Source: an uncultured virus (IMG/VR IMGVR_UViG_3300013382_000009) (Duplodnaviria; Heunggongvirae; Uroviricota; Caudoviricetes). Taken from it: 64,000 nt of DNA. Both the position numbers and the translations under genes were made by a program. The stretch lies in the IMG/VR virus record IMGVR_UViG_3300013382_000009. One strand, 5' to 3'. Shown here one piece after another: positions 10,273-52,200 of the stretch. Each line of letters opens with the position of its first letter. The first letter of the stretch is position 1. Under the pieces are notes generated by a model. That model worked only from the letters and a program-made list of their open reading frames with translations. It did not search any database and was not told where the DNA came from.

Positions 10273-10300
10273 ATTACTTACTACCTACAATAGTAGGAAT

Positions 10301-12855: not shown

Positions 12856-13659
12856 TTAGTCTTTTGTTTCTTTTGGCTTATATCCCAGTCTATCAAGCAT
12901 CTTTCTAATGTAATCAAGACCTTTTTGATAAACCAAAGTTTTTATGAAGATTCTAATCTCCGAACCGCAGTTTTTCTTGGTCTCTATGGTTCTAAAATAT
13001 CCTGCATCTATATACTTTTGATAAGGAAGGTTATTCGGCAACAAGACCTTTTGCTCTCTAAGTATTGCAAACAACTTATTTCGTCCAATTGATACGTAAT
13101 TTAAGGTATTTGCAACAGCCTTCATTTCAATAGCATCTTTACTTTCCGCAACAGAATCAAAGAACTCAACTTTTGGGGCATCAACTATGGCTTTCGCTTC
13201 AAGTTGTTTAATTCGCTCTTCTCTTCTTTTGAGAGTAGCCTGTGCAACAAGTAATGCCCTTGCCATCAAATCTTCTTCGGTTTCATCGTCCCTCATTACC
13301 ATATATCCGCCATCTTGGCGAATGCTTGGCAGTATCTCTGATGTTACCCATCTTTTAAACTCTTTGGCTTGCGGTAATTTACTTCCGAAAATCAGAGCAT
13401 AAAGACCAGATTCATTAACGAAAGTCATTTCTACCGTCTGGATTGCATCTGTTCCGTCTGCTTTCTTTCCTGTAACTACCCCTATGCCCTGTTTTAGGGC
13501 ATCCCCCTCGTCAACGTGAGCTGACACTGCATTTTGAGGTTTTGCGTACCCTAATGCCTTACAAACATCACTTGCACAGAACAGAGGAGCTTTTTCCGTT
13601 CCTTCAATTCGTATAGTACCGAATAAAGGATTAATTTTCTTCAAATGAATGTCGTTCAT
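12856..13659 (-). CDS. BRO-N / KilAC phage antirepressor
   Basis: PLFCASDVCKALGY, VNESGLYALIFGSKLPQAKEFKRWVTSEILPSIR, IGRNKLFAILR, PYQKYIDAGYF. Confidence 0.9.
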   Translation of the reverse strand: MNDIHLKKINPLFGTIRIEGTEKAPLFCASDVCKALGYAKPQNAVSAHVDEGDALKQGIGVVTGKKADGTDAIQTVEMTFVNESGLYALIFGSKLPQAKEFKRWVTSEILPSIRQDGGYMVMRDDETEEDLMARALLVAQATLKRREERIKQLEAKAIVDAPKVEFFDSVAESKDAIEMKAVANTLNYVSIGRNKLFAILREQKVLLPNNLPYQKYIDAGYFRTIETKKNCGSEIRIFIKTLVYQKGLDYIRKMLDRLGYKPKETKD

Positions 13660-14131: not shown

Positions 14132-14326
14132 CTATTCTTCTTTTTGGATTTCACTACTTCGGATTGCCTTCCTTATGCTGTTAATCTTAGAGTTGAGGAT
14201 GGAGATCCGTCTATAACATAGCTCGAAGTGCTCTAGTGGACACCAAGGGTTTCTTTCGAGCTGCTTGTATATGTCGTACACCCTTTGCCGATATGAGGCT
14301 AGGGTGGTCTTTGTTAAGTCTATCAT
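14132..14326 (-). CDS. hypothetical protein
   Basis: 64-aa first ORF after the ncRNA-rich leader. Confidence 0.55.
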   Translation of the reverse strand: MIDLTKTTLASYRQRVYDIYKQLERNPWCPLEHFELCYRRISILNSKINSIRKAIRSSEIQKEE

Positions 14327-14357
14327 ATTGTATAATTGTTTACAGATTTATTTAAAT

Positions 14358-14383
14358 CCTGCCTATCCTCACGGACTGGCAGG
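14358..14383 (-). repeat. GUGA-loop hairpin, copy 1 of 3 (others 15060-15086, 15177-15204)
   Basis: CCTGCC-AG-TCC-GTGA-GGA-TA-GGCAGG on minus strand. Confidence 0.7.
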
Positions 14384-14457
14384 GAGTTGCTTTTTCAAAT
14401 TCAAAATTATGAATTGCTGTGCCGCTGCACATAGCTTCTATGCGTGTAATGAGATAG

Positions 14458-14567
14458 TCCTCGCAGTTGGACTTGAACCAACGACCAAGTTGCACGGTTT
14501 GATAAGAATGCGTTAAGGATTTACACCTCTGTTACGTGCTTGCTCTAACCAACTGAGCTATGCGAGG
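14458..14567 (-). ncRNA. tRNA-like RNA with 38-nt expanded anticodon loop
   Basis: acceptor CCTCGCA/TGCGAGG, TAGCTCAGTTGGTTAGAGC D-arm, GTTGG-TTCAAGT-CCAAC T-arm; GCACG/CGTGC stem closes a 38-nt loop. Confidence 0.8.
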
Positions 14568-14569
14568 AA

Positions 14570-14619
14570 TGTTGAGGGCATCGTGCGCAACCACGAATTT
14601 AAGAGCCATGCTCACCCTC
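14570..14619 (-). ncRNA. candidate mini tRNA-like element
   Basis: GAGGGTG/TGCCCTC (7 bp, two G-U) stacked on TCGTG/CACGA hairpin; abuts the tRNA-like gene. Confidence 0.4.
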
Positions 14620-14621
14620 CT

Positions 14622-14693
14622 TTATCTACAATAGTAGAAATTTTCAGAAAATGCAAAAGTAGTATATCAGTTATCTACTATAGTAGAAATTTT
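14622..14693 (-). promoter_or_regulatory. leftward promoter flanked by two palindromic operators
   Basis: TACTTTTG (minus strand, 14654-14661) between two 23-bp repeats carrying TCTAC(A/T)ATAGTAGA. Confidence 0.7.
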
Positions 14694-14982
14694 GATTATG
14701 GCTAAACAATCAACATTCACTCTACTTGCACTCTGCATTTCTGAATATATTGTAAGGACTTAATAACTTCTCTTTTTTCCAATGTGTCAAAGAACACTGC
14801 TATTGCTAGCTTAGATTGTTACTGATGCACTATATATAATAAGGTGTAAGGTAAAAGGTGTTGGTAGAATGTTCGCCCACAACATTTCCTTATGATTTAG
14901 GGTTTCCCCATGGACTTTATCGCAGCTTTTGTCACCCCAACCGAACGAGATATTATAATAACAATTCACCAATAACGAATAG

Positions 14983-15054
14983 TGGGAAGTAGAGGAGTTG
15001 AACCTCTGTAGCTTAGCGAACCGCACAGCATCCTAACCGTTAGATGAACTTCCC
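14983..15054 (-). tRNA. degenerate tRNA / tRNA-like RNA (anticodon undetermined)
   Basis: GGGAAGT/ACTTCCC acceptor, ATCTAACGGTTAGGAT D-arm, AGAGG-TTCAACT-CCTCT T-arm; anticodon stem has two mismatches and no U33. Confidence 0.7.
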
Positions 15055-15261
15055 GATAACTCTCCTATCTGTCACAGACGAGAGAGTGATATGAATCAAC
15101 GTAAGCACCGCTGTGCCATTAAATCTATAGAAATACTTATATATTTTACTAACATTCATGTAGTTTCTTTTCAAGACCTCTCCCATCCTCACGGACAGGA
15201 GAGGGATAACGCTTTAATATGAATTTTACCTAAAAGCTAACATATAGCTTTTCACCTTATT

Positions 15262-15621: not shown

Positions 15622-16014
15622 ATGGAAGGACTAAAGGAACGTATCAATGAGATAAAGGACTATTACAGACTGTCTAACAGAGGGTTTGCTGCTGCTCTAG
15701 GCACAAAACCTGCTGCAACCAACAACTATCTCAACGGAACAAAAGAGCCATCACTAGATTTCGTGGATGCAATTTTGTCTAAGTACGTGGACATTTCTGC
15801 GGAATGGCTCTTGCGTGGCAAAGGAAGTATGTTTTGCGATGACAAGCCAACAGACGAGGAAGTAACTAAAGAATTGGCTGATGCCAAGGTGAAGATGCTT
15901 GTAAAGGATGGGATCATCAAGGAACTAAAAGATTTGATTCTCGAAAAGAACAGTGGTAAGAAGACGAGCAAGGACGAGATTGTCACACAGAAGTGGGAAG
16001 AAAAGTTCGGATAA
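15622..16014 (+). CDS. CI-like XRE repressor
   Basis: LSNRGFAAALGTKPAATNNYLNGTKEPS...ISAEWLLRGKGSM; C-terminal coiled coil. Confidence 0.85.
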   Translation: MEGLKERINEIKDYYRLSNRGFAAALGTKPAATNNYLNGTKEPSLDFVDAILSKYVDISAEWLLRGKGSMFCDDKPTDEEVTKELADAKVKMLVKDGIIKELKDLILEKNSGKKTSKDEIVTQKWEEKFG

Positions 16015-21329: not shown

Positions 21330-22466
21330 ATGGGGAAAATTAATTTAAGTATTATTCACAATCGGTTGAAGCGTGGAACGGCTCAAAAGCCTGTTTCGGT
21401 GGAATTAAGGTTCACTTGTGGGGGTAAGCGTAAGTATATCTCCACTGGGGTGAAAGTATGCCCTTCGCAATGGTCTGAGGGTAGTAAGCATGTTATCAGA
21501 TGCAAGGATGCCGAGGTTTTCAACAAGCAAATTGATGCCTTCGTGGATAGAGCAAACGAGGTTATCGCCAAGATGATTGCCAAAGGCTCTACAGACCTAG
21601 AGGAGATTCCTGCACTGATGGATGGCTGCTCCAATAAGTTTGCTGACTTCATCACCTACTGCGAGGAACGTACCAAGCAACGCAAAGTGAGCGACCACAC
21701 CAAGCGAAGATACAAGGTCTTCACCGACTTCTTGAAGAAATGGGGAAAGATTAAGGAGTTCTCCGATGTCAACGTATCTAACGTGCGTGCTCTGGACGAA
21801 TACTTGCACTCCAAGGGATTAGAACAGAGTACTGTCTATTGCTACCACAAGTATCTTAAGCTATTCGTGCGTGATGCGTGCATTGATGAGCTTGTGGAGA
21901 AGAATCCGTATAACTACCTACCTTTCAAGATTGGCAAAGGAGACAAGGAATTTGTGGATTGTCTGCCTATCGAAAAGTTCGAGAGTATCAAGCGATTGCA
22001 CCTAGAAGTGGACTATCTCGTCAAGGCTAGGGATTTGTTCTTGATGCAGTGTTACACTGGGTTGGCTTACTCCGACCTTATGGCTTTCGATTTCAGCGAG
22101 TGCGAGGAATCGGGCGGCAAATACTATTACCACGGCAAGCGAGTGAAGACTGACACGGATTTCACCTTCCAGCTATTGGGCGGTGCGGTTGCCATCCTAA
22201 AGAAGTACGACTTTCGATTGCCCTCTATCAGCAATCAGAAGTACAACGAGTATCTGAAAGCTATCGGTGCCATTGTTGGTGTGCCCAAGCTGCATAGTCA
22301 CATGGGCAGGGCTACGGCTGCTACGCTCTTCCTCTCGTTCGGGATGCCCATCAACGTGGTGGCAAAGGTGCTCGGGCATACCAACATCAGGCAGACACAA
22401 AGATACGCTCGTACGCTCAATCGTGATGTTTATTCGGCATTTGATAACATCGAAGGCAAGATTTGA
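21330..22466 (+). CDS. int: tyrosine recombinase/integrase, Bacteroidetes type
   Basis: N-terminal arm-binding domain (RKYISTGVKVCPSQW), SAM-like domain, CYTGLAYSD, K, HMGR, LGH, TQRY. Confidence 0.95.
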   Translation: MGKINLSIIHNRLKRGTAQKPVSVELRFTCGGKRKYISTGVKVCPSQWSEGSKHVIRCKDAEVFNKQIDAFVDRANEVIAKMIAKGSTDLEEIPALMDGCSNKFADFITYCEERTKQRKVSDHTKRRYKVFTDFLKKWGKIKEFSDVNVSNVRALDEYLHSKGLEQSTVYCYHKYLKLFVRDACIDELVEKNPYNYLPFKIGKGDKEFVDCLPIEKFESIKRLHLEVDYLVKARDLFLMQCYTGLAYSDLMAFDFSECEESGGKYYYHGKRVKTDTDFTFQLLGGAVAILKKYDFRLPSISNQKYNEYLKAIGAIVGVPKLHSHMGRATAATLFLSFGMPINVVAKVLGHTNIRQTQRYARTLNRDVYSAFDNIEGKI

Positions 22467-24268: not shown

Positions 24269-24468
24269 TGTTGCTTGTCTCCTATGTTTGATTAATAAAA
24301 TATCAACTGGCTCTGCAAGTCTTCGCAATACTGCTCTGCGTATGCTCTTGCATCACTCTCACTTGCGCCGCTATTCATTGCAGCGTAATAGGCATCGTTG
24401 TAGATGTCGTGCATTACTTCACTCATTGTGTAAATCCTTTCTTTAAATCGTTAAACTTATTCTTATCT

Positions 24469-24526
24469 TGGTGGGCTGCCAGTCTCTGCCACTGGCTCGG
24501 TGGCTGTCTTGCGATTCCACTAGCCC
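24469..24526 (-). ncRNA. candidate tRNA-shaped element ending in ACCA
   Basis: GGGCT/AGCCC closing stem stacked on GCCAGT-GGCAGAG-ACTGGC, internal GTGG/CCAC arm, 3' ACCA. Confidence 0.45.
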
Positions 24527-34293: not shown

Positions 34294-37200
34294 ATGAGTG
34301 ACAATAACACAAGTTACTTCGATTTGTACAAAGCCTTGAAAGCGGACGGTGCGGTTCAGGGCGACTGGGGTAGTTTCCATAAGTTTATTGGTGCGCCTGG
34401 CAAGCAGGGCTACCTCAACAGAAAGAAACTCTATGATGCGCTGAAAGCGGATGGAGCGGTGCAGTCTGGCAGCTACGAAGAGTTTAATATGAAGCTTTTC
34501 CGTGGCGGTCAGGCTAGCTTGAAGGCTGCAAAGCAGAGACAAACACAGAAGTCTGTACAGTCTCAGCCTAGCAAGCCTATGACTACTGCTGAGAGGGCAA
34601 GGCAGATTGGTCAGGAGTATATGCAGGGAAAGGCAGGAAAGAGCAAACAGCCTGTGGATTACCTTCACAGACCTCAGTCTCAGCGTGGAAAGGCGCCTGT
34701 TAATGCGCCAAAGACCGCCTCTCCTTTCGTTCAGTCCCTTTATGAGATTGACAATGCAAAGAAGGGAGCGGACTATCCTGTAAGCTACTCTTCCCCTAGA
34801 GGCGTACAGCAGGTTTATCAGCAGAATCAACAGGTGAGAAAGCAAGCGGCGAAGACCGCTGCAGACCATATCGCCAACGATGAGTATCGCCGTCAGAGTC
34901 AGCCGATGATTGACAACGGAACCGTGGGCGTAATGAAGCCTATGGGGCAGTTGGAGGAGGATATGCAGCAAAGCGCAAAGCAAATGGTGGACACTAACAT
35001 GCTAGGCGACGTGAACGATGCCATCAAGCAAGGTCTCGCAGAAAACGAGGAGAATGGTGCCTATGAAATGGGAAGGGTCAGCGGCTCTACAAGCGGTAGC
35101 TTCTGGGATAAATATCTCAGTATGCTCGGCGGTCAAGGTACTTCGTCGACTGCTATCCGTGCCTACAATGAGGCGAATGACCCAGAGAAAGCCTTGAAGC
35201 GTATTGGATTGGGGTTGCAGACGCTTGCGGATGATCCGAGATTCTCCAAGCAGATTTCGGACGAAGCAAACCGACTAGGCGTAACAGAGGACTACTATAA
35301 GAGCTATCTCGCCAACCAGCTAAACTCTGAGCTTGAAAAGAGATTCGATAAGGAGGCTATCAAGAAGTACTTCCCGAAGGATTCTATCAGCTATTGGCTC
35401 AACAATGCAGCAAGAGCCAACACGATAACGAGCACCATCATGGGTGCAGCTGGAACTAAGGGTGTGAACCGTCTGGCTGAGGAAGCCATGGCGGAAACCA
35501 ATGAAGGAAACAATCCATACTACAAGCCATCCACATTCGAGAAGGTATCTTCCGAGGTGGCAGGTATGGTATCCGACCCTTTATTTAAGGGAGCAGCAGG
35601 AGCTGGCGGAAAGGTAGCAGGCAAACTCCTTGGCAATAGCACAAGGGTTGGTGCGTTGATGGCTAACGGCAACTTGGCGCAGAGACTTGGATTGTCTGGT
35701 GTACAGGCTGTGACTAGTGGAGGCGTTACTGGTTTCACCTTTGGCGCAACAAGCGGGGCTATCCAGAACTTCTCCACTGGCGAGGACACATCTCTGGGTG
35801 GAACCTTGAAAGCTATGTTGGCGAGCGGTGCATCTGAGGCAGGTAGTTTTGCTACCATGAGCTTGGCTGGTGTTCCTCTTGGACAATTTGGGCGAAGCAT
35901 CGGACTGAAAAGCGTGAAGACCACTCCTTTGACCAAGGATTGGTTTAAGTATGGCTCTGCCAAGATAGGAATGGAAGCAGCCAAGACCTACATGGAAGGT
36001 ATGGGTATGTACCTCGGTGGCTATGTTTCTGGCAAGATTGAGGGACGTAATCAGGAGTTCAGTCTGTTTGATGGCACATTGGAGAGCCTTCCAACTGCCA
36101 TTGGATTCAGATTAACTCATTTGGCAGAAGGCTTGAAGGGCAAGCGATATGATAAGAACGGAAAGCCTCTAAACTGGTGGAACTCCACCATGGTGAAGTT
36201 TAACGAGTTCCTGACTTCCGACAAGGCTAAGGTTTCGCAATACATGATGACCGAGGGAGAAAAGCAGCAGATTATGAACTCCATCGACGAGACGAACGCT
36301 GCTAACCCGGGGCTGTTTGGGAACGTGTTCGATGCTGCCATGAAAGCCAAAACGGAGCTGAAAACAACTGGTGGTATTTTGGAGAAGCCTTTCATCGGCG
36401 AGCCAACTTCATTTGGCGATGTTGAGAGAGACATGGAGGTTGTCGAGACTGTCTATGATAAGATTATCGCCGACCCTAACGTGTCTTGGGATGCCAAGGC
36501 TAAGTTCTCAGCTATGGTGATGGGCGTTATGCCTTCCTCTCGCCCATTGATGGACTATGTGTTGTTCACCAATGAGGTAGTTATGAAAGATAATCTGAAC
36601 CGAGGTACACGCAAATACATCAATGAATATTCGAAATATGGCGAGTTGCTTTCAAAGCGAGAATACACGGATGCCGATGAGAAGGATAAAGCTCTGTATA
36701 CAATGAAAGCTTACAAGGAGCAAGCTAGACTCTGGAATGCTATTTCCGCTGTTACTAATATAGACAAGAATAACTATGACATGCAGAATGATTTCTATAT
36801 GCAGGGAATCAAGAATGCCGTTAGTAACGCTGATATTCGTGCCTTTGTTGACGGATTGGGTATTAAAGGATCTGCCGTAGAACGTGAGTTTACTAACTAT
36901 GCCATGGAGAAAGGCAACGTGTTGAAGATATTCGACTCGGTAGCCAAGCAATATGGTATGGAAACCGCTGACCTTGTAAAGGCTTTCAATAAGTCTGCCA
37001 TGCGCAGAACAGACAGGGAGCAGGAGGCTTGCATTCATCTTCGCCAGATAATGGAATTTACGGCTTTTCCTCCTAACAAGGTTCACGCAGAGCAGAGCAA
37101 CCTGAACGGAAAGGACGTGGCATCCGACAACAACCTTGGCACCGAGCAGCCTAACGGCGAGGCGGTGAAGCAGGAGTTGAACGGACTGAGACAGGCTGAG

Positions 37201-40200
37201 GCTGAAATGGACGTGCTGATGAGGGATAACGATGTGTTCAGCCAGAACTTCAAGAAGCTACAGAGTCAGGGGCTTACCAACCCTCAGATTTACGACTGGA
37301 TGATTCAGAACGGACTGACACAGGAGCAGCTGGAACCATTTGCCCATTATATCAATGCGAACGCTAGAGTGCAGGGTATGCAAGAGGCTACCAAGCAGAA
37401 GATTGAGGAAGTGGTGAGCGGTGTCGTACAGGATTGGTCTTACCATGGAGATCTGAACGGTCAGAAGATGGACGGCGAACAGGTGGTTTATGTGCAGGAC
37501 AGCGAGGGCAGAACCTTGATTGTTGGCTCTGGCGATGTGGCTTTCGACCCTACCACTGGTCGTGCGAAGGAAGATGTGGGCGACTTGCTTATCTGCTTCG
37601 ATCCTAACACCAAGGAAATGGTGTACTTGAAGACGGACGATGTGACCTTCATGCAGACTCAGAAGCCTGAGGATTTCGCCAACGAGTATCGTCAGCGATT
37701 GCAGATGATTAACTCTCAGCCTTACAATGAGGCTGCTCAGGAACAGGCGATGCAGGATGCAGCTAAACCTCAACCAAAAGAAGAAACTCAGCACAAATCA
37801 GAGAATGGTGGCAAAAATGGCGAGTTAGCACCACAAGATAATACCACATCGGCAAAAGTTAGTACCACTTCGCCGAAAGATAATACCACAAAAGAGGACT
37901 TAGTACCACAAGAGCAGCCTCAGCAGACTAGAAAGTTTGCGGACGGAACCGATGTGCCGATGACTACTGATAGAAAGGGAAGACCAACACCTGACTATGG
38001 AGCGATGAAGCCAGAACAGGCGGCGGAGATTCTTTCGCAGGACTTGGGGGATAGTGCACAGCCTTACGTGGATGCACAAATCAAGCAAGCAGAGAAAGCT
38101 GTGAAGGATGCCGAGAAGATGAAAATTGACATGAGCGGCGAGCCTAATGATGTTATCGAACAGCAGAAGGCAAAGGCTAAGACCATCGAGGCTGCAAAGA
38201 AGCAGCTTGAACAGGCGCAGAACATCAAGAAGGCGATGACTGCCAAGGCTGTGGCTGAGACCATGGGCAAACCTACCGAGGAAAAGGTGGAGGGTGCCAA
38301 CGAGGCTAGCAGCGAGGTAGCCAAGAAGTTCCAGAATGCGCCGAGATTACAAGGCAACCACGTAAGCAAGCGTCTGCCTAACGGCGACAAGATTAGCGGA
38401 CACTATGAGATTGTTCCTGCCGAAAGCTTGACTCCTTCGCACGATGTAATGAATGACTATAAGAAGTCAGAGGGCTTCCCTGTGGATGCAGAGGGAAGAA
38501 CTATAAATGATAGAGACTATGAGCACGACAAGGCGGCGCAACAGACCACCGACCAGATGGCTCAGAAGTACAGCGGACAGGCGATTTCTCAGGTGCCTAC
38601 GGTATCTGACGAGGGTATCGTTTACGATGGCAACGGAAGAACCATGGCAGGACAGAAGGCTGCGAAGAACGGTACAGATGCTGAATACATCGAGGACTTG
38701 ATGGACAATGCCCAGAACTATGGCTTCACCAAGGAGCAGATTGAGCAGAGTGGAACGGAGCATCCACGTCTTGTGATGGTAACTGATGAAAGATTGCCTT
38801 ATGATACGGCTACCTTCTCCATGTTCAACAGAAACGAGAAGAAGACGCAGAGCAACACCGAGCAAGCTGTGGCTAAGGCTAAGACCTTGACTAGCGACGA
38901 GGTGGGTGCCATCGTTGCCGACATTGAGGGAAATGGTAGCTTGGATGCTTTCTTTAACAATTCCAAGGCAATAAATGACTTGGTGAAGACGTTAGTAAGT
39001 AAAGGTGTCATCGGACAGAACGAGGTGGCTGGCTTCATGGATGGTCCAGACAGACTGTCGGCGCAGGGCAAGGAGTATGTGAAGAACCTCTTGCTTGGCT
39101 CTGTGTTCAAGCCAGAGACTATCCGTATGCTTGGAGTGGATAGCAAGATCACGAACGCTGCCATCAATGGCATTCGTGCCATCATGGATAACTTGAAGCT
39201 GGGCGACTACTCTCTGCGTGACGAGATAGACCAAGCCATACAGTTGCTCTACGAGGCTGGAAGAAACAAGATGAGCGTGGATGACTTGCTGAAACAGAGC
39301 AGTGCCTTCGAGGAGAACGCTAGGGATAGATTCCCGATGATTGCACAGGCTATGGCTCAGGCTCTGGAGGATAAGCCTACGACTTTCAGAGAGTTGATGA
39401 GCGAGTACAACAACATCGCCAAGAACTACAACACGAACGAGGGCACCTTGGGATTCTATGATAAGTTAACGCCTGAGCAGGTTGTGGAGGAGTTCCTCAA
39501 CGCTAGCAAGGCTATCAAGAACAATAACATCAAGCTATATGGAAAAGAATCAGAAACTGAAAGAAGCAATGATGCTTCAGGCAATGAAGAACCTGCAAAA
39601 GAAGCAGGAGGAGCAGCTGGCACAGAAGGAAATGGGAATGCTGAAACAGAACCAGAAATAAAGGTTAAGAAAGCATTGAAGCGCATCGCTACCGAGATTA
39701 CCAATCAGACAGGTATCGAGGTGGTGACGGATGAAAAGGTGGGGCAGAGCACCCTGGAGGATGCTGAGGCTACAGATTCCAATGTGAAATATAGCCGAGT
39801 AACCGACAAGGACTTAATCGCCCAACTGGAGAAAGAGCCTAAGATTAAGGTTTACCGTGCGATGCAGGTGATTGATGGAAAGCTATATCCACCAATGGCT
39901 GCTTACGCTGACGGAAAACTTGTTGAGGCTAACGAACTTGGCAAATGGATTCAGTCTGACGAAATGCCAGACTCGAAGAACACCGTCTATAAGATTAAGG
40001 GTTCTCCTACGACCATATCAAAGGACAGAGCCATTAAGGGAGAAGATGGTGTTTGGAGAGATTCGAAGACCGGAAAGGAGCTTGTTACAGGTGATGACGG
40101 AGAGCCAACTTGGTATTTTAAGCTACAGAAGGGAAAGGGTGCTGACGGAAAGAAGCTGACCGATGTACCTGCTGCTTACAATCCATACTGGCACCTCTCC

Positions 40201-43200
40201 TACTCTCCATTGAACGACCAATTTAAATCGGCTTGGATTCGTCCTAACATCGTGGTTGTGGAATGTGAGGTTCCTGCAAGCGAGCTGAATAGCGGTTACC
40301 GAGCAGAGCACGCCAAGAACAGCGTGGGCATGACCCCTTGGACTAGCGGTGTTGTTACCAAGCAGCTTATTGCGCAAAGACATGAGGGCAGAAAGGTAAT
40401 GCTATCTCGTTGGTGCAAGCCTGTAAGGGTAGTGCCTGACGCAGAGGTTGCTGCGAAGATTAAGGAATTTATCGGTGACCATGATGTAGAGATTCCTGAG
40501 AACGTGGTTACTCCAAGACAGAAGGTTGAGCTTGAAAAGCTTGGCGTGAAGATTGGAAAGCCAGAGAAGGGAATGAATAAAAACGAGCAAATCGCCGATG
40601 CAATCAAGCTAGGATTGCAAGTTGACAACACGGTCAAGGAACAGCGTGCATCCGCAGGTAGCACAGTTAGTGGTATGGAAAAAATGCCAAAGGGTTTGCA
40701 AATGAATCCTAGCGTATTGACCGACCAGATACTTAACTATCATGGCGATCATATCGCAAAGCTACTTGGTGAAGTACCAGAGGATAGTACTGTTAAGTAT
40801 TTCTCTGCACACAATGGAGTTTGGTATTTCTACCGAGTAGATCATGACCGCAATATCATCCTTGATGGTGCCATTTCTGCCAACAAAGACAATTATCGTG
40901 AATACGAACAAAAGATAAAAGAGTATTATGGAATTGACGGCGGCGCAGAAGCTATTTATAATTATGTGCAAGAAGCAGGGTTTGACACAGGAGCAAACCG
41001 CAATTTGCATGACTATTTTCTCGAAGGAGGAAATACGAGACATTCTGCAATGGGTGAGCGACCTAATGAACCGCAAGGGAAAGCCAGAATTGAAGACAAC
41101 GGAACTGCTGGCAGAACTTTACGACAGGGCGTTGGCGAAGAACAAAGCGGAGCAATTAAGGAGTTCCGTTCTGCCAACGGAGAGGTCTATGGATTCACAG
41201 TAGATGGCAAGATTTATCTTGACACCAAGAAGATGAAGCCTGAGACCCCTCTGCATGAGTACACCCATTTGTGGACTGAGGCTTTGAGGAACGGCAACCC
41301 TACAGAGTGGGAGAACGTGAAGAGTCTCTTCGATGAGGTTGAAGGACTGAAAGAGGAGGTTCAGAAGCTGTACCCTGAGCTAAAGGGCGATAACCTTTAC
41401 GAGGAGATGATTACCACATTCTCTGGTCGTGAGGGTGCCAAGAAGCTTGAAAAGGTTGTGCGTGGTCTCGCTAAAGAGGATGGAAAGACCGTAGAGGAGA
41501 GAGCCAAGGCTACAGGCTTTATCACCAAGGTGAAGGAAGCTTTGCAGAAGTACTGGAAGGGTGTGGCTGACATGCTTCATATCCACTTCACTTCTGCCGA
41601 GGAGGTTGCCGACAAGGTTCTTGCTGATTGGGCTAGCGGCTTCAACCCAAATAAAGCTTTCGATGTAAATGACAGAGATGGCGATTATACGAAGAATAAC
41701 GTTGAATACATTGTTAAAAATACAAAACTCCCATTTGGCAAAAAATACGGAGAAGAACTATCTCAAGAAGAAGTCAAGTCGTTATTCTATGGGGATAATG
41801 ATTACTCAAAGAAATACGGCAAACTATTCGATAGAGTTTACGATGTTGCTCGAAAACTAGGTATAAAAATTAGCTTCAAAATACCACCAGAAACTTATAG
41901 TGCTTATGGTCTAGCTGATTTGGATAACGTATATCTAAATCCTATACTTCTTGCAAGAGGAGAGCATAAGGTTTTCCCAAACAAGAAGTATAGCCTTTAC
42001 GTTAAAGAAGATACGCTTCCACATGCAATGTTGCATGAGTTAATACATTCTGTTACAGCCTACGCTTTGGAAAGATATGAAAGAGACAAGGATAGTATGC
42101 CTAAAGAACTAAGGGCAGCTGCGGAGTCTTTGATAGATTTGTATGAAGCTACGAGAAAGGCAACTCTGGATTACGTTAATGAATATGGAAGAGAGAATGA
42201 ACAAGAATTTATCGCTGAATTATCTAATCCTAATTTTTGTAAGCTTCTAAAGAAGACAAATGTTTGGACTAGAGTGAAAGATGCGATAAAGCAATTCTTC
42301 TTCCCTCTGATTTCTTCCGAAAAGAATGTGTTGGATAAGTCGTGGAAGGAGACAAACTCTTATAAAGAGCTTTCTTCTTTACTTGATGACTTTTTAGAGC
42401 ATAGTGACAAAGGTCTATTTGAAGAAGAGATTGGTGTGCAGAACGGTGAAATCAAGGGCAAGGAAGAAGCTAAGGAAGAACCTGTTCCTATCATGCCGAA
42501 GCCTGTAGATCCTAGCAACCCTATAGAAAAGGCGGCTGAGGACTACAAGAAGGAGCATCCTTTGAGCGAGGATGAAATATTGAACACTACGGCGTTCGAT
42601 GGTTTGCCTGAAGACCAGAAGCAGTATTGCATTGATGCGGCTTTGGACTATCTGAATGGCGAGGACACTTCGGCTATTTCCGAGGCTTACTATAGAAACG
42701 CCTACGAGAAACGTTCTAGCCGTCCTGCCGAGACAGCGAAGGTTGCCAAGGCAGACAGCGAGACTGTCAAGGCTGGACAGGCTGAGGTTTCTGCCGACCC
42801 AATGGAAGGAATCAAGAATGCCGCAGAGGGATTCGAGCAGGAGAAGGCTGAGAGGGAAAGAAAGCAGAAGGAGGCTACCCAGAAGGTTCTGAACGTTATC
42901 AAGGCTTCGAACGAAAAGGCGAAGACCAGAAAGCAGTTGGAGGCAGAGAAGAATGCAGCGGACAATGAGTTTGAGGCATTCATGAAGGAACTACGCAAGA
43001 AACAGAGCGGTCAGCTTAACTCTGGCTTCATCGACCAGAACTTGATTGAGGCGGCACCAAAGATGTTCTCTCTTGCAGCAAAGTGTGCCTACACTCGTAT
43101 CAAACTGGGCATGTATGATGCCAAGGAGGTGGTGAAGGATTTGCGCAACCGCTTCAAGGATGCTTTCGATGGATTCGACAAGCGAGACGTGGAAACCTTC

Positions 43201-46200
43201 TACTCTGAAATCATGAACCAGAAATGGCGTGATGGTGATAAGAGAATGAGCCTCAACGAGTGGGCAGAGCATTACAGAAAGCTTTCTCCTGAATATAAGG
43301 AGAAACTGGAAGGCGACTCGAAGGATGCCGAGGAAAGGAAGATGAGCGAAAAGAAGTTCATTGACCGTGTGAACATTCGACTTGGATTCGGACAGAAGAT
43401 AAACGGCATCGTTGAATTGAGAAAGATGGCTGAGGAATGCGGCTTGAAGGATGTGAAGGACACAGACCTTCAGGAATTGGCAGAGACTGCCATTGTGCAG
43501 AGAGCTAGAGGTATCGCTTCGTCTGCATCCACAAATGATGCCAAGAAGTTTGAACTCATCAAGAAGCTTTACGAGAATCAGCCTAGCCTCAACCAACGTG
43601 ATTCTGAGCGAGTGATGAAGCAGCAGTATTCTACCCCTGCCCCATACGCTTTCTTGGCAGACATGTATGTGAAGGGAGGCGGCAAGGAGGTGAAGAGCGC
43701 ATTGGAGCCTAGCGCAGGAAACGGTATGCTTACCATCGGCTTGCCTATGGACGTGGTGCATGTGAACGACATTGACGCTCAACGTTTGGCGAACCTGAGA
43801 AGACAGGGCTTCAAGAACGTGACGAGCCAAGACGGAACCCAGCCTTTCGCCGACAAGGACGTGGACGTGGTGGTAACTAACCCACCATTTGGCAGTGCTA
43901 CACCAAAGGAATATGACGGCTACAAGATTTCCTCATTGGAGGGTCAGATGGCTATCAACGCCTTGGAGAGCATGAAGGACGATGGTCGTGCTGCCATCAT
44001 CATCGGCGGCAAGACGGAATATGCCAAGAATGGAAGTCTGAACCCAAAGGATAAGGCTTTCCTTGGGTATCTCTACAGCCACTATAATGTGGAGGACGTG
44101 ATAAATGTGGATGGCAGTCTCTACGCAAAGCAGGGAACTACCTACCCTACACGTATTATATTAATAAACGGAAGACGCTTGGACGAGAATGTTTTTCCAC
44201 CAGTGAAGAGCAAGGCAAGAGCGGAATCCGTGAAAGATTATGACGAACTTTATAAACGAATTAGCGATGATATACTACGAGGTGAACGGATGGATTCTTC
44301 CATCGGAAGAGAAGAAGGAAGTACTAGACCAGAACTTGATAGACAAGGGTCTGTTGATACTCATGAAGAGGGAGTACGAATGGGAGGACAACGAGGAGGC
44401 GAACAAACAGATATTCGTGGGGAAGAACAGTCTGGAGAGCCTTCCGTATCAGGAACCTCTGATAACGTGGCAAATCGACCAACAGCCGAACGAGAAACAG
44501 ATGGAGGACTTTCTGATGGAGATAACTCAGCAGACCGAACAGGGACTGATGCTTCTCAGGGCGAAGGGACAGAAGCTAGAGCCAATGAGCAACGAGTATC
44601 TGGACGAAGAGGACTTGGAGGGAATGACTCTAAGCCAAGTACTAGCGAACCTACCGACAACAGCGGAGGGCGATCACGGGGACAATTACAGCGGGTGGAC
44701 GAATCCGTACGTGGATTAAGTACCGAGAAAGTAACCTACGCCCCAAGAAGTGAGAACCCCTTCACTCTGAAAGCGGTGATGCCTGCCGACCAACAGGAGG
44801 CGGTAAACAAGAACCTTGAAAAGCTCGGCGATGCCGACCAGTTCTTGGTGGACGAGTTGGGCTATAACGACAAGGAGGATTTGTATTCCCATCTTGCAGC
44901 CGAGCAAGTTGACTCTGTAGCTCTCGCCTTACAACAAGCTAAGAAGGGCAATGCCTTCATAATCGGCGATATGACAGGTATCGGCAAGGGAAGACAGGCT
45001 GCATCCCTTATCAGATATGCGAAGAAACAAGGTCAGGTGCCTGTATACTTCACCAAGACAGCAGGATTGTTGAGCGATGTGTATCGTGACTTGGTGGACA
45101 TTGGTAGCCCAGAATTGAGACCTTTTGTATTTGGTAGTGCCAAGGAAGCGGCTATTACCGACTCTGAGGGTAATGTGAAATTCGCATTGCCATCGAAGAG
45201 CGAGGTGAAGCGTGTGCTCGACTACATAGAAAAGAACGGCAAACTACCAAAGGAATACGACTATGTGCTTACTACCTACAGCCAAGTAAGCAACGGCGTA
45301 TATGAATTTGACGAGAACGGTGCCCGAAAAGAGCGAAAACTAGCCAAGGGAAAATCTTTCGGCGCAGCTGCATTGAGTGGACAAAGAAGACGTGATGCCA
45401 TCGAGAAATTGATGGATAACGGTTATCTTATCCTTGACGAGAGCCATACAGCAGGTGGTGATAGCGGTCAAGGAAACTATTTCCAACACATTATTCAGAA
45501 AGCTAAGAATGTAACCTTCTTCTCGGCTACGTTCGCCAAGCGACCAGACAATATGCCTATCTATGCTTTGCGTACTGCCATGAACCAAGGTGGACTGAAA
45601 TCAGCCGACCTCATTGATGCAGTGAAGCGTGGTGGTGCCACCTTGCAGGAAATCATGAGCCAGACACTGACACAATGCGGTCAGATGATTCGCCGTGAGC
45701 GAGACATGACAGGCGTGACCATCGACTGGCGAGCCATTGACGAACCTGAAAAGGTGAAGGAGCAAAGAGAGCAATATGATAGTATCATCGGTTTGTTTAA
45801 TGATATTATCAATTTCCAAAAGACTTACGTGAGCGGTTATGTTGAAGAACAGAACGAGGCTATGGCTGCCATGCAAGCAAGCATGGGCATCAAACGTGGA
45901 ACGGAAGCTTTGGGTATCAAGAACGTGCCATTTACTAGCAAGGCGTTCAATACCGTGCAGCAGGTGCTCTTGTCACTGAAAGCCAAGTCAGCCGCAGAGC
46001 GAGCCATCGACTACTTGAAGCAGGGCATGAAGCCTGTGATTGCGCTGAATAATACCAACGAGTCGCAGACAGGAAACATTGCACTCGGCGAGGAAATGGA
46101 TGCTCCAGACTTGGGCACTTCCCTGAGAAAGGGCTTGGAGGGCACACTTCGCTACACCTCGAAGAATGCTAAGGACGAAAGTAGTAGTGGCTACATCAGA

Positions 46201-49200
46201 CTGGAGGACTTGGGCGATGATGCGGTTGAGGCTTATCGCAACTTGGAAAAGAAAATCAAGGAGACAAGTACCGGTCTTTCCCTCTCCCCTATTGATGTTA
46301 TCAAGAACGAGTTGGAGAAAGCTGGATATAAGGTAGGCGAGTTGACAGGAAGAAGCACCGAGTTTGTATATAACGAGAACGGCACCGTTACCAAGGTGAA
46401 GCGTACGGACACGGATAAGAAGAAACTCGCAAGAGAGTTTAATGACGGTCAGATAGATGCGTTGATTCTGAATAAGAGTGCTGCCACAGGTATCTCACTC
46501 CATGCCTCTAGCAAGTACAAAGACCAGAGAAAACGAGTGATGATCGTAGCGCAGCAGCAGCTTGATGTGAACGATGAGGTGCAGATGCGTGGTCGTATCG
46601 ACCGAACAGGACAGGTGGCTAGAGGTGCATACGAGTATGTGGTTTCTCTAATTCCTGCCGAGCAGCGATTGTTGATTATGTTCAAGGCAAAATTGAAGTC
46701 GCTCGATGCCAACACGACTTCTTCACAGAAGAGTAAGTTTAACGAAATGGAGGTTGCCGACATTACCAATAAGTACGGCGACAAGGTGGTGCGTGAGTAT
46801 ATGGCGGAGCATCTAGACCTCTATTCTCGTATGGCAGACCCATTCGGTTGGGAGAAGTCGTTTGGTGATGATTTGTCCTCTACCCCAACCCAGAGCCTTG
46901 TTGTTACCAAGAGCGGCGTGGGCGATGGTGAAGCTGGTGCCGATGCAAGCAAGTTGCTTGGTCGTATGGCTCTCTTGAAGGTTGCAGAGCAGGAGAAGAT
47001 GCTGAACGAAATCGGTGAGTTATATGCCAACGAGATTCAACGTCTGAACGAAATGGGCGAGAACGACTTGGAGATTACCGAGTTGCCTCTGAAAGCCAAG
47101 ACCATCAGCAAGGAGGTTTGGAAGGAAGGTGCCGAGCCTGGAGGCGACAATGCCTTTGCCGACAACACCTATATAGAAAAGGTGAACATGGCTATCTTGA
47201 AGAAACCAATGAAAGCCAAGGAGGTAAAGAAGGCGCAGGATGGACTGACTGGTGGCAAATCGTGGGACGAGTACAAGGAAGAGAAGTGGAAAGCTATCGA
47301 AAGCTATTTTGTCAACAAAGGAGCAGAAGAAGGCGCAAAGATAGAAGAACGTGCTAGAAAAGCAGCAGCCAAAGCTAGAGAAAAGTACATAAAGGATGCC
47401 AAGCGAGGACAAAAGGATTCAGGTATGACCGATGAGCAGATTGCGCAAATGGCTATTTACCAACAAGACAATATCTATAAGCAGGAAAGCGCAAAGAGCG
47501 AAGACCTTATAAAGAATCTAAAGAATAAAGCTGGTATGTTCTTGCGTGTGCTTGAAACTTGCAATACCGAAGATGCTTACGTGCTGCCTGTAGATATGAA
47601 CAAGCCAAACGAGTTGAGCGGATTCGGAAATAGTTATGGTAGGCTGATTGACATCAAGATAACAGATAACTTCTCTCCAAATGCCTCCACCGTGTCGTTT
47701 GCAACGTTGGACGGTAGAAGAAAAATAACCTTCCCTATCTCTGGTATGGTTGGCTCTGGTGAGAATCGTACCGATGTTATCGCTGCCATCGACCGAATGA
47801 CAAGACAAGCTTCAGGACTTGGCGACAAGCATCTGCGTGTGTTGAGCATGGACGTGAACAACTGGGATAAGCTGGTAAGCAACGAGAGTAGAAAGGATGG
47901 TTACATCGTAACTGGTAACTTGATGCAAGCCTTGATTGACAGTAAGAACCAAGGTGTGGGCGGTCAGCTTGTGAAATATACTACGGACACTGGCGAGGTG
48001 AAGACTGGTATCTTGATGCCGGACAGATTCAAGCCTACCGATGTAGCGAATGAATATCCTATCTCTAGTGTGGCGGACAAGTTTGAACTACCTTCACATA
48101 AAGGTGGAATCGAACAGGCGGTTTCGTCTGACGGCGATGTTAAGGTTATTCTTGGCTTCGACCATGGAGATACTTATTATCAGATTCAGGTTCCAAAGAG
48201 CAAGGCTAAGGGTGGCAAATACTTCCTTGACAAGGATTTGCTCAGTATGGTAAGAGGACATAACTTTGAGACCAGAGGAAATAGGATGATGGCTAACATT
48301 GACGAGAATCAGCTTCGCCCTGTTCTTGCCAGACTTTCTAACCTTGGTGTGAAGGTAAGAGAGGAAAGAAAATCATCGGATGATGGCACACACTTCCGTG
48401 AAGACCATGGCTTGCAGTATTCTAAAACAGATACAAAAGATGTTAAGAAAAGTAGAATCATTCCCGAAGATGTGGATAAAAGTGTATCTTCGCAGATTGA
48501 AAAGAAGTTTGATGACAGAGTAAATGAACTGACAAAAGACTTGTCGGAAGAGGACAAAGCCGAGTTTAACAGACACCTCGACCACTACACCTCGGATTTC
48601 TCTAGAGCCAGAGCTTCTGAAATTACTTACACTTTAAACGGATTAAGAAATGAACTTATATTCTGGGAACGAACTTTTGGAAATGGAGAACGAGCAGGTA
48701 GAACACATCTTGTACAAATTAGGAAAGTTGAACTTGAAGCTGCGGAAGCTGCCGCAAGGAGAGAAATGGACTATCGAGAAGTTCGAGCCAAGGCTCTCGA
48801 AGATAGCTATGGATTGCGAAGAGGAGCTAAAACCTCTTTTGCAGATATATCTAGACTCTTTGAGGCGACAAATCAAAGCGAAGACGGAGGCACAAGAAGA
48901 CTCTTCGAGAAGGCGAGCGATATAGCCAAGCGTCTCGGTGTAGAGTTTGGAGGCAAGGACGAAGGAAAGACGAGAGGTAATATAGCTGAGGCTACGCCTG
49001 ACAGAGATATTAACTTCTTCATCGACTCTGTTTGCAGAACAAACACGAACTCCAAGGAGATTGCTCATTCCATTCTGCATGAAATGATTCATCAAGCTAC
49101 CATGGGTGCCATCCATCTGGTAAAGGACGGAAAGGCAGATGGTATGCTTACGCCTAAGCAGATTGAGGCTGTGAAAAACATCATTGATATTTACAACAAG

Positions 49201-52200
49201 GCGAAGGCTGACGGTAGAATCGTTTGGGAGGATGGCAACAGACGTGACTATGGCGGTAAGGATGAATACGAGTTTGCCGCAGAAATGTCAAGCGAGAAGC
49301 AGAGAAACGCCCTTGATATTCCTCTTGGCGAGAGAATTATGAACGCTGTGAGGGAGTTGCGCAACAGAGGCGACAACTCTTTGTGGCAAGCTGTGAAGAA
49401 TGCTTGGCACAAGCTATTCGAGGTTTCCGACAAGAGTAAGATGGATAAGGCTCTCAACGACATCATGGACGATTTCAACAAGAATATTGATGATGTTGCC
49501 ATGAATGACATCGAGGAAAACGGATATGCCAATCAGTTGGATTCTCCTGTTTCTTCCCACATTGCCCAACTGTCAGAAAAGGTTGGTGCCAAGGTGAACA
49601 TGGTTAATTCTGCCGATGAGGTAACCAACAAGCAAGCCAAGGAAGCAATCGAGGAAGGCAAGCATATCACTGGCTGGTATGACGAGAAGACTGGCGAGGT
49701 ACATCTTTACATGCCTAATATCCACGACCGGTACACTGCCGAGAAGACTATCTGGCATGAGGTTGTGGGTCACAAGGGAATGAGAGAGCTGTTTGGCGAA
49801 GACAGATTCGACAAGTTCCTGCGTAGTGTTTGGTATGACTTGGATAAGCCTGAGTATGCGGTCTTGAAGAAGTTGGTGATGGAGGAAATGAAGTACAATC
49901 CGTTCAATGTGTATAATGCCATTGAGGAAGGTATCGCCCGACTCGCCGAGGATGGAAGAGGCGAAGCTGGTTTCTGGAACAACATCAAGAATAAGGTTTC
50001 TGACTTCTTGCACGAAATAGGCTATCGCATGGCTCCTAACACGAAAGATGTGAAGTACTTGCTCTGGTTGAGCAAGAACTTGCAGAAGAATCCTAACGAC
50101 CCTTACTGGAAGATGAGAGCCGAGGCGGTGAAATACCGTCTCGACCATGAGCGTGTGCCTAGCGTGATAGAGCATGATGGCGTGTTCCGTGACAATGACG
50201 GTAAGATTTACAAGGACTTGGGCGACTTGCCTAAGGCTGAGTATCAGGAGGCAACGGACGGACAGATTCATTTCCGCACTACCCCATCGGCTGGCACGGC
50301 TCTTGATAGGTACCATCGTTCGCTTGATGAGCACGGCTATATGTTTACGGAGAGCTATATGGACAATATGCTTTCGCTTAAGAACCTGATGACGGCGATT
50401 GTGCCTGGCAAGAAGATTGAGGATATTGCATCCTCGGAGAATCCTTATATCCTACAGAACACGATGCAGGGAGCGATGAGCGATGCGGCAAGAATGTTTG
50501 AGCGCAACGTGATGAAGCCTCTCGACAAGGCGATGGCAGGGGTGCTGGATGCCTTCGATGGGAAGAATGACGATGAGAAGATTCGTAACTTCAACCTCTA
50601 CATGATTACCAAGCATGGTTTGGAGCGCAACCGTATCTTGTATGTGCGTGATGCCTTGAAGGACATGCGCATGGACGAGAAGAAGAAAAAGCTTGCTGAC
50701 ACCATTGAGAATGATTGGGACAACGAGAAGGCGACACTTGACGAGAAGTTGGAGCGTGGTGACATCGACTTGAAGGAGTATTACAAGCAGATGGATGACT
50801 TCATCCGTACTTACGTGGATGAAACGAATAAGTTTGATGCTGGCGAGCACGACTATTCGGGCATTCACGCCATTCAGAAGGTGGAGAAAAGTTCCGACCC
50901 TTACGATGATGCGGAGGCTATACAGAGCGTGATGGACTCTGAGGGCAGAATGGAGGACATCAAGAAGGGCGCAGTGAAGGACTATTGGGATAAGGTGAAG
51001 ACTGCAACCCAGTATTCCATCGACTGTGACTATAGGAACGGACTGATAAGCAGGGAGCTGTATGGTCATGTTTCGGAGATGTTCAACTGGTATGTGCCTC
51101 TGAGAAAGTATGACGAGGCTACGGCGGAAGATACATACGGATATATCACCGAGAAGGGCGACCCTAAATCTTACATCGGCAAGACGATCATGAGGGCAAG
51201 GGGTCACAAGTATCTGAGTGAAACGAACATCTTGGCTCAGATTGGAGCGATGGGCAACCGTGCCATCAAGAACGGCGGACAGAATGCCATCAAACAGGCG
51301 TTCGCTAGATTCATCAGAAACAACTCGAACAATAATCTTGTGACGGAAACTAGCGTTTGGTATGTAAGCGACCCTATCACTCAGACCACCGTGGAGCGTT
51401 ACCCAGATATTCCTGACGATGCGACCGCTGACGAAATCAGCCAGATTGTGAGCGACTTCAATATGGAAATGAATGACTTGGCATCGAAGGGATTGGCTAC
51501 GAAGGTGTATCGCAGAGGAAGAATCGGGTATAAGTTCCAGAGAGCGGAGAACAAATCTCAGCATATCGTTGATGTGATGATTGCAGGAAAGAAGCACTCC
51601 TTCATCGTGAACGGAAACCCTAGGGCTGCACAGGCTCTGAATGGATTGCTGGAGCATAAGAATGAGACTGGCATCGGTAAGATTGCTGGCAAGATTTCTA
51701 GATTTATGGCTCAGACCTGTACGTCTTACAACCCAGAGTTTGTGATGAGAAACATGATTCGTGACTTCGAGTTTGCTTCTTCTAACCTCTTGGCTAAGGA
51801 AGGTGCAAGATATACTGGTATCTTTGAGAAGTACTATGCGAAGGTTGGTATCATAGAGGGTATCAGAAATTCTAAGCTGAGCGACTTCAAAGACACAGGC
51901 GGTTTCGGCTTGTTTGTCAAGTATCGTAACGGAACGCTTGACACTTCCGACAAGATTCAGAGATATTTCAAGGAGTTCATGGAGAACGGCGGCGAAACAG
52001 GTTGGGTACAGATTAAGAGCATGAAGGAATGGACGGAAGAGTATAAGCGTGACATCAAGGCAGAGCGCAACAAAGCTGTCAAGGTAGGAAAAGGATTCTA
52101 CAATGCCATCTTTAAGAACTTGGAAAATGTGAACGAGATTGCCGAGAACATGGCTCGTTTCGCTACCTATTGTGCCAGCAGAGACAGCAATCGTTCGGTA

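Follow-up and report, generated by a model that had tools for sequence, protein, structure and literature searches.

The minus strand of the window (the whole 64,000-nucleotide stretch of DNA analysed here) carries a tRNA-shaped non-coding RNA module that lies in the early operon of a Segatella/Prevotella temperate phage and is neither a decoding tRNA nor an intron-bearing tRNA. The module is probably a regulatory RNA rather than a working tRNA. In place of an anticodon it displays a 38-nt loop, which, judged by its conservation among relatives, is the part that matters. We tentatively propose that the element is a tRNA-scaffolded regulatory RNA that would act through this loop, as a processed antisense RNA after the manner of C4 of phage P1. 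The features of the window are listed in Table 1.

Table 1. Positions of the element and of associated features in the window
Feature	Position	Strand	Basis or remark
tRNA-shaped cloverleaf, enlarged anticodon loop	14458..14567	minus	Rfam RF00005, anchored parse, MFE fold
38-nt loop TAACAGAGGTGTAAATCCTTAACGCATTCTTATCAAAC	14534..14497	minus	closed by GCACG (14539-14535) / CGTGC (14496-14492)
Loop motif 1, GTGTAAATCCTTAAC	14512..14526	minus	14/15 columns invariant, six scaffold types
Loop motif 2, ATTCTTATCAA (core TCTTATCAA)	14499..14509	minus	core invariant in 9/9 columns, six types
Conserved leader, GGTGAGCATG + boxA-like GCTCTTAAA (14606-14598) + hairpin + TGCC	14577..14616	minus	77 IMG/VR loci
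Leader hairpin TCGTG-GTTGCG-CACGA	14596-14581	minus	covaries
Hairpin TGTGC-AGCG-GCACA, downstream of cloverleaf	14418..14431	minus	stems differ in relatives
Long hairpin CCCTGCC-AGTCCGTGAGGAT-AGGCAGG, GUGA cap	14358..14384	minus	second copy upstream
CRISPR repeat handle ATTTCTACTATTGTAGAT	14624..14641	minus	7 nt upstream of leader
Second CRISPR repeat handle ATTTCTACTATAGTAGAT	14673..14690	minus	exact
Third handle copy, compensated stem CCTAC/GTAGG	10283-10300	minus	
Candidate two-block target site: GATAAGAAT (24467-24459), 19 nt, AAGGATTTACAC (24439-24428), then AATG	24428..24467	minus	loop complementarity
44-aa ORF (MSEVMHDIYNDAYY...), candidate target start region	24292..24426	minus	no Pfam family
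Element B, three-way-junction RNA GGGCU...AGCCC then ACCA	24469..24526	minus	directly 5′ of candidate target
cro-like gene, 67 aa	15262..15465	minus	synteny; phrog_16858
CI-like HTH repressor gene, divergent	15622..16014	plus	PHROG repressor families; synteny; weak HTH_19/HTH_3 below cut-off
Conserved 64-aa ORF after element	14132..14326	minus	follows in 12/12 genomes; no family above threshold
Ant-type antirepressor	12856-13659		downstream of element; PHROG scan
Integrase	21330-22466		window gene scan

The cloverleaf and its relatives

We scanned the 64-kb window against Rfam, and the tRNA model RF00005, which matched the element at 46.1 bits (gathering score 29; E 1.2e-6), was the sole family to reach its gathering score anywhere in the window. 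The alignment spans model positions 1-71 of 71 and contains 51 inserted bases, all of them in the anticodon arm. Read from 14567 to 14458, the element is CCTCGCA-TA-GCTC-AGTTGGTTA-GAGC-AA-GCACG-(38 nt)-CGTGC-AACTTGGTC-GTTGG-TTCAAGT-CCAAC-TGCGAGG-A. The acceptor CCTCGCA/TGCGAGG forms 7 of 7 pairs, the D arm is GCTC-AGTTGGTTA-GAGC, and the T arm GTTGG-TTCAAGT-CCAAC has a T loop, TTCAAGT, of the conserved tRNA kind. The minimum free energy fold obtained with RNAfold is the cloverleaf itself (−30.8 kcal/mol, z −2.1), with 6 of 200 shuffles as good. An earlier note on this DNA had described near-perfect acceptor, D and T arms and a 38-nt loop closed by GCACG/CGTGC; Rfam, RNAfold and our parse confirmed that description, the letters it quoted being those of the minus strand.

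ARAGORN in default mode found no tRNA and no tmRNA at the element, and a 7-nt anticodon loop with U33 and a readable anticodon is absent from it, the loop being 38 nt long. Rfam gave no tmRNA match in the window. The C4 antisense RNA family (RF01695) had no gathering-score match in the window and none at E ≤ 1 in 14300-14750, and a query of 2 kb around the element found no match in the GenBank phage collection.

Relatives were collected from IMG/VR with two patterns. A 15-mer from the loop retrieved 63 loci, 17 of which carry the second loop block and the same architecture, the remainder being chance matches. A 19-mer taken from the leader upstream places no constraint on the loop and retrieved 77 loci; these and the window make up a set of 78 sequences, most of whose loci come from the leader-only search, so that the loop was not used in finding them. 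A MAFFT alignment misaligned the scaffold types, so that RNAalifold missed the cloverleaf, though not the leader; an anchored parse was used instead. Leader, cloverleaf and insert were parsed in 72 of the 78 sequences, a recurrence which argues that the window's cloverleaf is not a chance match, and these fall into 42 distinct variants and six scaffold types. Of the six sequences that did not parse, three (L090, L131 and L148) hold another insert in their cloverleaf, two (L114 and L142) show a tRNA-like structure in reduced form, and one (L110) has none.

The arms of these variants differ in sequence from type to type. Four anticodon stems occur (GCACG/CGTGC, TCCGT/ACGGA, CCCGA/TCGGG and CCGAT/ATCGG), and 5 of 5 pairs form in 41 of the 42 variants. 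Three acceptors are fully paired at 7 of 7 positions (CCTCGCA/TGCGAGG, TGCAGAA/TTCTGCA and CTTTGCA/TGCAAAG); TCCACCG/AGGTGGA forms 6 pairs, CCGCCTA/ATGGTGG 5, and one further acceptor 4. T stems have 5 or 4 of 5 pairs. The anticodon stems and the three fully paired acceptors bear out the view, put forward in the earlier note, that the arms are under selection. The commonest scaffold types are partly degenerate, with 5 or 6 of 7 acceptor pairs, 4 of 5 T-stem pairs and the T loop TCCGAAT. This T loop occurs in 23 of the 42 variants, and the commonest type has at most 6 of 7 acceptor pairs and a variable loop of 3 nt. When six relatives were scanned, the Rfam tRNA model matched L036 (47.6 bits) and L069 (46.1 bits), and no match at E ≤ 1 was obtained in L029, L064, L081 or L087.

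The earlier note took a variable loop on a constant scaffold as support for a cargo; the opposite was found. Across the six scaffold types, none of the 14 acceptor columns is invariant, and the anticodon stem and the T stem have 2 invariant columns each out of 10. Loop motif 1 (GTGTAAATCCTTAAY; GUGUAAAUCCUUAAY as RNA) is invariant in 14 of 15 columns and motif 2 (RNA block UCUUAUCAA; core TCTTATCAA) in 9 of 9, which makes 23 of 24 for the two motifs together. The core TCTTATCAA was found in 41 of the 42 variants, and the loop measures 38-41 nt in all of them. Since the stem changes are compensated and the motifs are near-invariant, scaffold shape and loop sequence are both under selection.

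Complementarity between the loop and a distant start region

A candidate partner of the loop lies 10 kb away, where blocks of 12 and 9 nt within 24467-24428 are complementary to it on the same strand and in antiparallel order, an arrangement that is indistinguishable from an inverted DNA repeat. In G001, the nearest record (49% of sampled words in common with the window), 15 contiguous nucleotides are complementary to that phage's own, slightly different loop. The pairing is kept in G002 through one G-U pair, and L337 is a fourth relative with the same site; the window and these three are close relatives and count as one evolutionary event. The predicted duplex with this UTR has an energy of −26.3 kcal/mol in the window, −31.8 kcal/mol in G001 and −22.6 kcal/mol in G002. 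Shuffled loops gave −8.6 to −10.5 kcal/mol, and in each of the three genomes none of 300 was as good. In a genome-wide test for exact two-block matches, the window scored 21 and G001 22, values that none of 100 shuffles equalled (highest 20 and 19, respectively).

The exact two-block test was not significant in G002 (30 of 100 shuffles as good), G003, G004 or G010, and in the homologous UTR of G004, G005, G006, G008, G009 and G010, 13-89 of 300 shuffles were as good, which is likewise not significant. G003 and G007 have no detectable homologue of the target UTR, yet the loop is kept in both. Ranking by RNAduplex across the genome did not single out the site in the window (−26.3 kcal/mol against −26.1 for the next) or in G002, and ranking by energy over start regions yielded no shared top target; for clades other than the window's, both rankings were too noisy for targets to be named. 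Matches of at least 9 nt close to a ribosome-binding site, some of which include the ATG itself, numbered 15 in 11 related genomes against 5.4 expected, a result matched by 1 of 200 shuffles; this enrichment at start codons is mild and suggestive at best. Sequences resembling GGAGATAAGAATATG recur at gene starts within the same gene block.

We also looked for partners in host sequence. In five MAGs the two-block pattern occurred only in a prophage's own element, in the prophage UTR and at four unrelated sites. BLAST of the element against three host MAGs returned generic D-arm matches only. The earlier idea of an antisense guide has support in the window's clade, with 12 + 9 nt of complementarity at a start codon, and found no significant counterpart in the other clades; the loop may instead be an aptamer or bind a protein. 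Of the phage and host partners that it envisaged, a phage start region emerged in the window and G001, and no host target in the five MAGs.

The region directly 5′ of the candidate target is itself structured. The stems of element B covary between clades (GGGCU/AGCCC, GGGCG/CGCCC and GGGUG/CACCC), all three stems being compensated, and the element has no Rfam match. Its modelled fold resembles a small tRNA that lacks the anticodon arm. It shares a 9-nt complementarity (CTGCCAGTC) with the hairpin that follows the cloverleaf, in the window's clade only and possibly by chance.

Leader, neighbouring genes and alternative readings

Judged from its sequence, the window belongs to a temperate phage. 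The order CI-like gene, cro-like gene, element, 63-72-aa ORF and NinG-like gene is kept in 12 of 12 genomes, and in all of them the element occupies a place that matches nutR-tR1 in lambda. Further along the minus strand lie genes for NinG, the Ant-type antirepressor, an SbcC-like protein and RecT. Of 81 matches of a pattern search in MAGs, 76 are chance matches and 5 are family members; the contigs of three of these bear the labels Segatella copri, Candidatus Segatella violae and Prevotella sp., and those of the other two Bacilli and Lachnospiraceae. The evidence points to a Segatella/Prevotella host of the gut, and the identity of the CRISPR repeat units described below with a Segatella copri handle also speaks for Segatella. 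Elsewhere, the window contains a single ORF of 6406 codons (34294-53514, plus), unusually long for a phage of ~75 kb, and a run of N at about 31290 (seen from the minus strand).

The leader stands directly upstream of the family members with the consensus GGTGAGCATG-GCTCTYAAAT-hairpin-GCC, and is present in 77 of 77 IMG/VR loci, which were found with the leader as search pattern. Its hairpin alternates between TCGTG/CACGA and TCATG/CATGA (one pair is AU in 16 and GC in 13) around the loop GUWGCG; outliers have CACAG/CTGTG and TTGCAG/CTGCAA. The boxA-like stretch GCUCUUAAA (GCTCTTAAA) is identical to the boxA stretch of lambda nutL in J02459, which reads GGTGACGCTCTTAAAAATTAAGCCCTGAAGAAGGGC. 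Lambda nutL (...GACGCTCTTAAAAATTAAGCCCTGAAGAAGGGC) thus contains the GCTCTTAAA of the phage leader, a hairpin follows in both, and lambda nutR sits after cro as the leader here sits after the cro-like gene. On the basis of the boxA match, the hairpin and the nutR-tR1-like place, we read the leader as a nut-like site; BoxA in single-stranded form is bound by NusB:NusE, according to a passage in PMC2800207. In contrast to lambda, where boxB has the loop GAAAA or GAAGA, the hairpin loop is GUWGCG, and a tRNA-like module follows the nut-like site, with none in lambda. We rejected the idea that the leader encodes a short peptide (MALKFVVAHDA...) behind a Shine-Dalgarno sequence, as the "codons" are the hairpin with its compensatory changes and the stop in relatives is out of frame to varying degrees or follows right behind codon 12. 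A second boxA-like stretch, GUUCUUUGACACAUUGG, lies at 14779-14795 (minus); it matches the start of the Rfam DUF2693 RNA weakly, at 15.6 bits, far below threshold.

Hairpins also flank the element. The AGCG-capped hairpin downstream has relatives with compensated stems (GTTGC-AGCG-GCAAC and GCTGC-AGCG-GCAGC), and a second GUGA-type hairpin at ~15177-15205 (minus) has the same loop, GUCCGUGAGGAU, as that at 14358-14384 on a different stem. AGCG-capped hairpins are paired as well, at about 15100-15113 and 14418-14431 (minus), and the paired types stand in mirror order around two tRNA-likes.

The main rival to a trans-acting antisense RNA is a cis-acting, protein-binding module for antitermination or termination, which we regard as possible but on the whole improbable. 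The leader would be the nut site, and the same leader RNA would have in the looped cloverleaf another module, for protein binding or for processing. Ligands of the loop might be Nus factors, Rho or an N-like protein of the phage; alternatively, cleavage by RNase P might free the nut RNA from the message, a variant that we hold no likelier. Conservation of the loop would then reflect its recognition by a protein. Such a module would suit the nutR-tR1-like place in 12 of 12 genomes, the nutL boxA with its covarying hairpin, the covarying AGCG- and GUGA-capped hairpins on both sides of the element, and the retention of the loop in clades for which the searches gave no RNA target. By eye, UCCUUAAC and UUCUUAUC in the loop look loosely like boxA, a weak resemblance. 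Against it, no N-type antiterminator family was found among 39 ORFs scanned against PHROGs and Pfam, among which small ORFs of unassigned function remain; the window has one boxA match on the transcribed strand and yielded no second nut site; the hairpin loop is unlike lambda boxB; and no intrinsic terminator was scored near the element, flanking hairpins included.

The cloverleaf is not the only tRNA-like structure in this region. A second, weak one lies at 14984-15054 (minus), ~420 nt upstream, and scored 21.8 bits with the tRNA-Sec model (E 0.16). Relatives have tRNA-likes in the same relative place (L036, 101-176; L029, 235-309; L081, 113-182) in which the anticodon arm is a closed hairpin, and ARAGORN assigned 4-nt and 2-nt "anticodons" to two of them. 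In G011, an L090-type phage, a further tRNA-like with an encoded ACCA end (GGAGCGG...GTGGGTTCAAATCCCACAGCTCCACCA) follows just after the first; it is reminiscent of the tRNA-like end of tmRNA, and ARAGORN found no tmRNA in the two stretches scanned.

A tRNA body maintained through compensatory changes might also act as a decoy or mimic. It would present a tRNA-recognising host factor, for example a tRNA-modifying enzyme or an anti-phage nuclease that cleaves tRNA, with a loop that traps it or resists cleavage. Other tRNA-likes that lack a normal anticodon loop occur in the same region, both in the window (15054-14984) and in relatives, and the CRISPR repeat handles adjoin as anti-defence elements; both observations would fit a decoy. 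We nevertheless consider one unlikely, in that the degenerate acceptor and T arms of the commonest scaffolds would be surprising in a mimic, and the invariant sequence of the 38-nt loop would be left unexplained.

The handles follow the pattern ATTTCTACT-NNN-GTAGAT, with two exact units 49 nt apart. At up to 2 mismatches the window has 4 matches, 2 of them exact, against 0.26 expected. A Segatella copri MAG contains an array of 31 repeats (array repeat GGCTAGAATGCTTCAATAATTTCTACTATTGTAGAT), presumably of the Cas12a type, and the two exact units have the same sequence as its handle. The two palindromes upstream of the element had been candidates for operators, a reading dropped on account of this identity. 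Handles are confined to the window's clade (the window, G001 and G002) and absent near the element in G003-G011; G012 has one far-off match on the opposite strand. They could be solitary repeat units, that is, an RNA anti-CRISPR, or a phage mini-array. RNA anti-CRISPRs, or solitary repeat units of phages, were reportedly described by Camara-Wilpert et al. in 2023, and the window likewise has two host-identical repeat handles in a non-coding phage region; here, however, the handles lie beside the cloverleaf and form no part of it, and they are clade-limited.

It is very unlikely that the element as a whole is a CRISPR device, in which a handle, the leader as "guide" and the cloverleaf as a maker of RNase P-cut 3′ ends would work together, or in which the loop would mimic a repeat; a crRNA-like or anti-CRISPR RNA as its product is no less doubtful. 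Two exact handles of the Segatella copri type close to the leader and a loop of repeat size (38 nt) speak for it. Against it, the cloverleaf family is much wider than the clade that has handles, and the loop is not repeated in host genomes: its pattern was present in one of 301 host-family genomes, where it is the prophage itself, with no array-like copies seen.

Least probable of all, to the point that we set it aside, is a real tRNA gene from which a short intron is spliced, for example a tRNA-Leu(CAA). ARAGORN with introns allowed does call tRNA-Leu(CAA), giving it a variable loop of 9 nt and a non-canonically placed "intron" of 31 nt, and by Rfam the window's scaffold is an excellent tRNA; intron-containing tRNA genes, whether archaeal or eukaryal (position 37/38) or bacterial (group I), likewise have extra bases in the anticodon arm of a good tRNA. 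Here, in contrast, the extra bases are wrong for an intron in position, length and geometry, and no part of the element is better conserved than the insert. The insert lies elsewhere than at position 37/38, and no U33 is left. A bulge-helix-bulge motif (AAG-CACG-UAA / CGUG-CAA-CUU) would leave an arm of 16-18 nt where 22-23 are needed, by manual count. The absence of a canonical anticodon loop and of a group I intron, both asserted at the outset, held: a group I core takes ~200 nt or more, the insert has 38, and no Rfam intron family matched even at E ≤ 1. The ARAGORN solution was rejected for its non-canonical place and for a flank whose length varies across orthologues. Between UCAA and the 3′ stem strand, the 42 variants have A (30), AC (8), C (2), AA (1) or CC (1), so that no common 7-nt loop can be restored. 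The TCCGAAT T loop, 3-nt variable loop and mismatched acceptor of the commonest type, features shared by scaffold types A and B, argue against a decoding tRNA, and the hosts are bacteria. A coding reading of the loop was also rejected, as variants bring in stops.

Proposed role and known systems

Returning to the tRNA-scaffolded antisense RNA that we tentatively favour, we suggest that the cloverleaf is kept as a shape only. Most likely it would be a handle for RNase P and RNase Z, by which a stable RNA of ~110 nt would be cut from a long early transcript. The 38-nt loop would be the working part, constrained in sequence, and would most likely base-pair with phage mRNAs in their ribosome-binding regions. 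Within the window's clade, its partner might be the start region of the first ORF behind element B, whose translation would be blocked. The analysis shows the fold, the family with its compensatory changes and conserved loop, the synteny and the complementarity; the steps from transcription and processing to pairing in vivo and repression are our inference.

The closest known systems are C4 of P1/P7 (RF01695) and the CI RNA of P4, which are likewise non-coding RNAs of the immunity or early region of temperate phages. Their short exposed blocks are said, by Citron and Schuster in 1990 and Forti et al. in 1995, to pair with the start region in two parts; a similar two-block complementarity occurs here, in one clade only. 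As with C4, an antirepressor gene (Ant) lies downstream. The element differs from C4 in size and completeness, with 110 nt, all four cloverleaf arms and a single 38-nt loop, whereas C4 is a 77-nt RNA with reduced arms; in having its candidate target 10 kb away in another gene block, whereas that of C4 is on the same leader; and in its Bacteroidota host and the lack of an Rfam match other than tRNA. A review (PMC3858429) describes the C4 precursor as tRNA-like and as a substrate of RNase P, a tRNA-like fold making C4 and CI RNA substrates of this enzyme, and the fold here is tRNA-like too.

tRNA scaffolds for recombinant RNA have also been engineered, reportedly by Ponchon and Dardel in 2007. 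Those scaffolds are man-made; the element would be a natural counterpart, with processing and stability predicted. In the engineered versions, foreign RNA is placed in the anticodon arm and the cell processes and stabilises it, as stated in excerpts of PMC3753655 and PMC3401473. It is conceivable, if rather less than probable, that the phages have natural tRNA scaffolds with an invariant guide loop, in which an RNA with a lambda-like nut leader is processed by tRNA-maturing enzymes of the host and acts in trans on phage gene starts, beside element B, in an early or immunity circuit. Such an RNA-based circuit is not known to have been described in Bacteroidota, and no published description of such an element was found in the full-text literature searched.

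The family is well defined by its 42 variants, clear structure and invariant loop, and its only Rfam match is to the generic tRNA model. If our reading is correct, the tRNA fold would carry a regulatory loop in phages that infect a dominant genus of the human gut. This would be a device of RNA engineering in natural form, related in function, though distantly, to P1 C4 and P4 CI. Such phages would also have a lambda-style boxA/hairpin leader outside the enterobacterial lambdoid phages.
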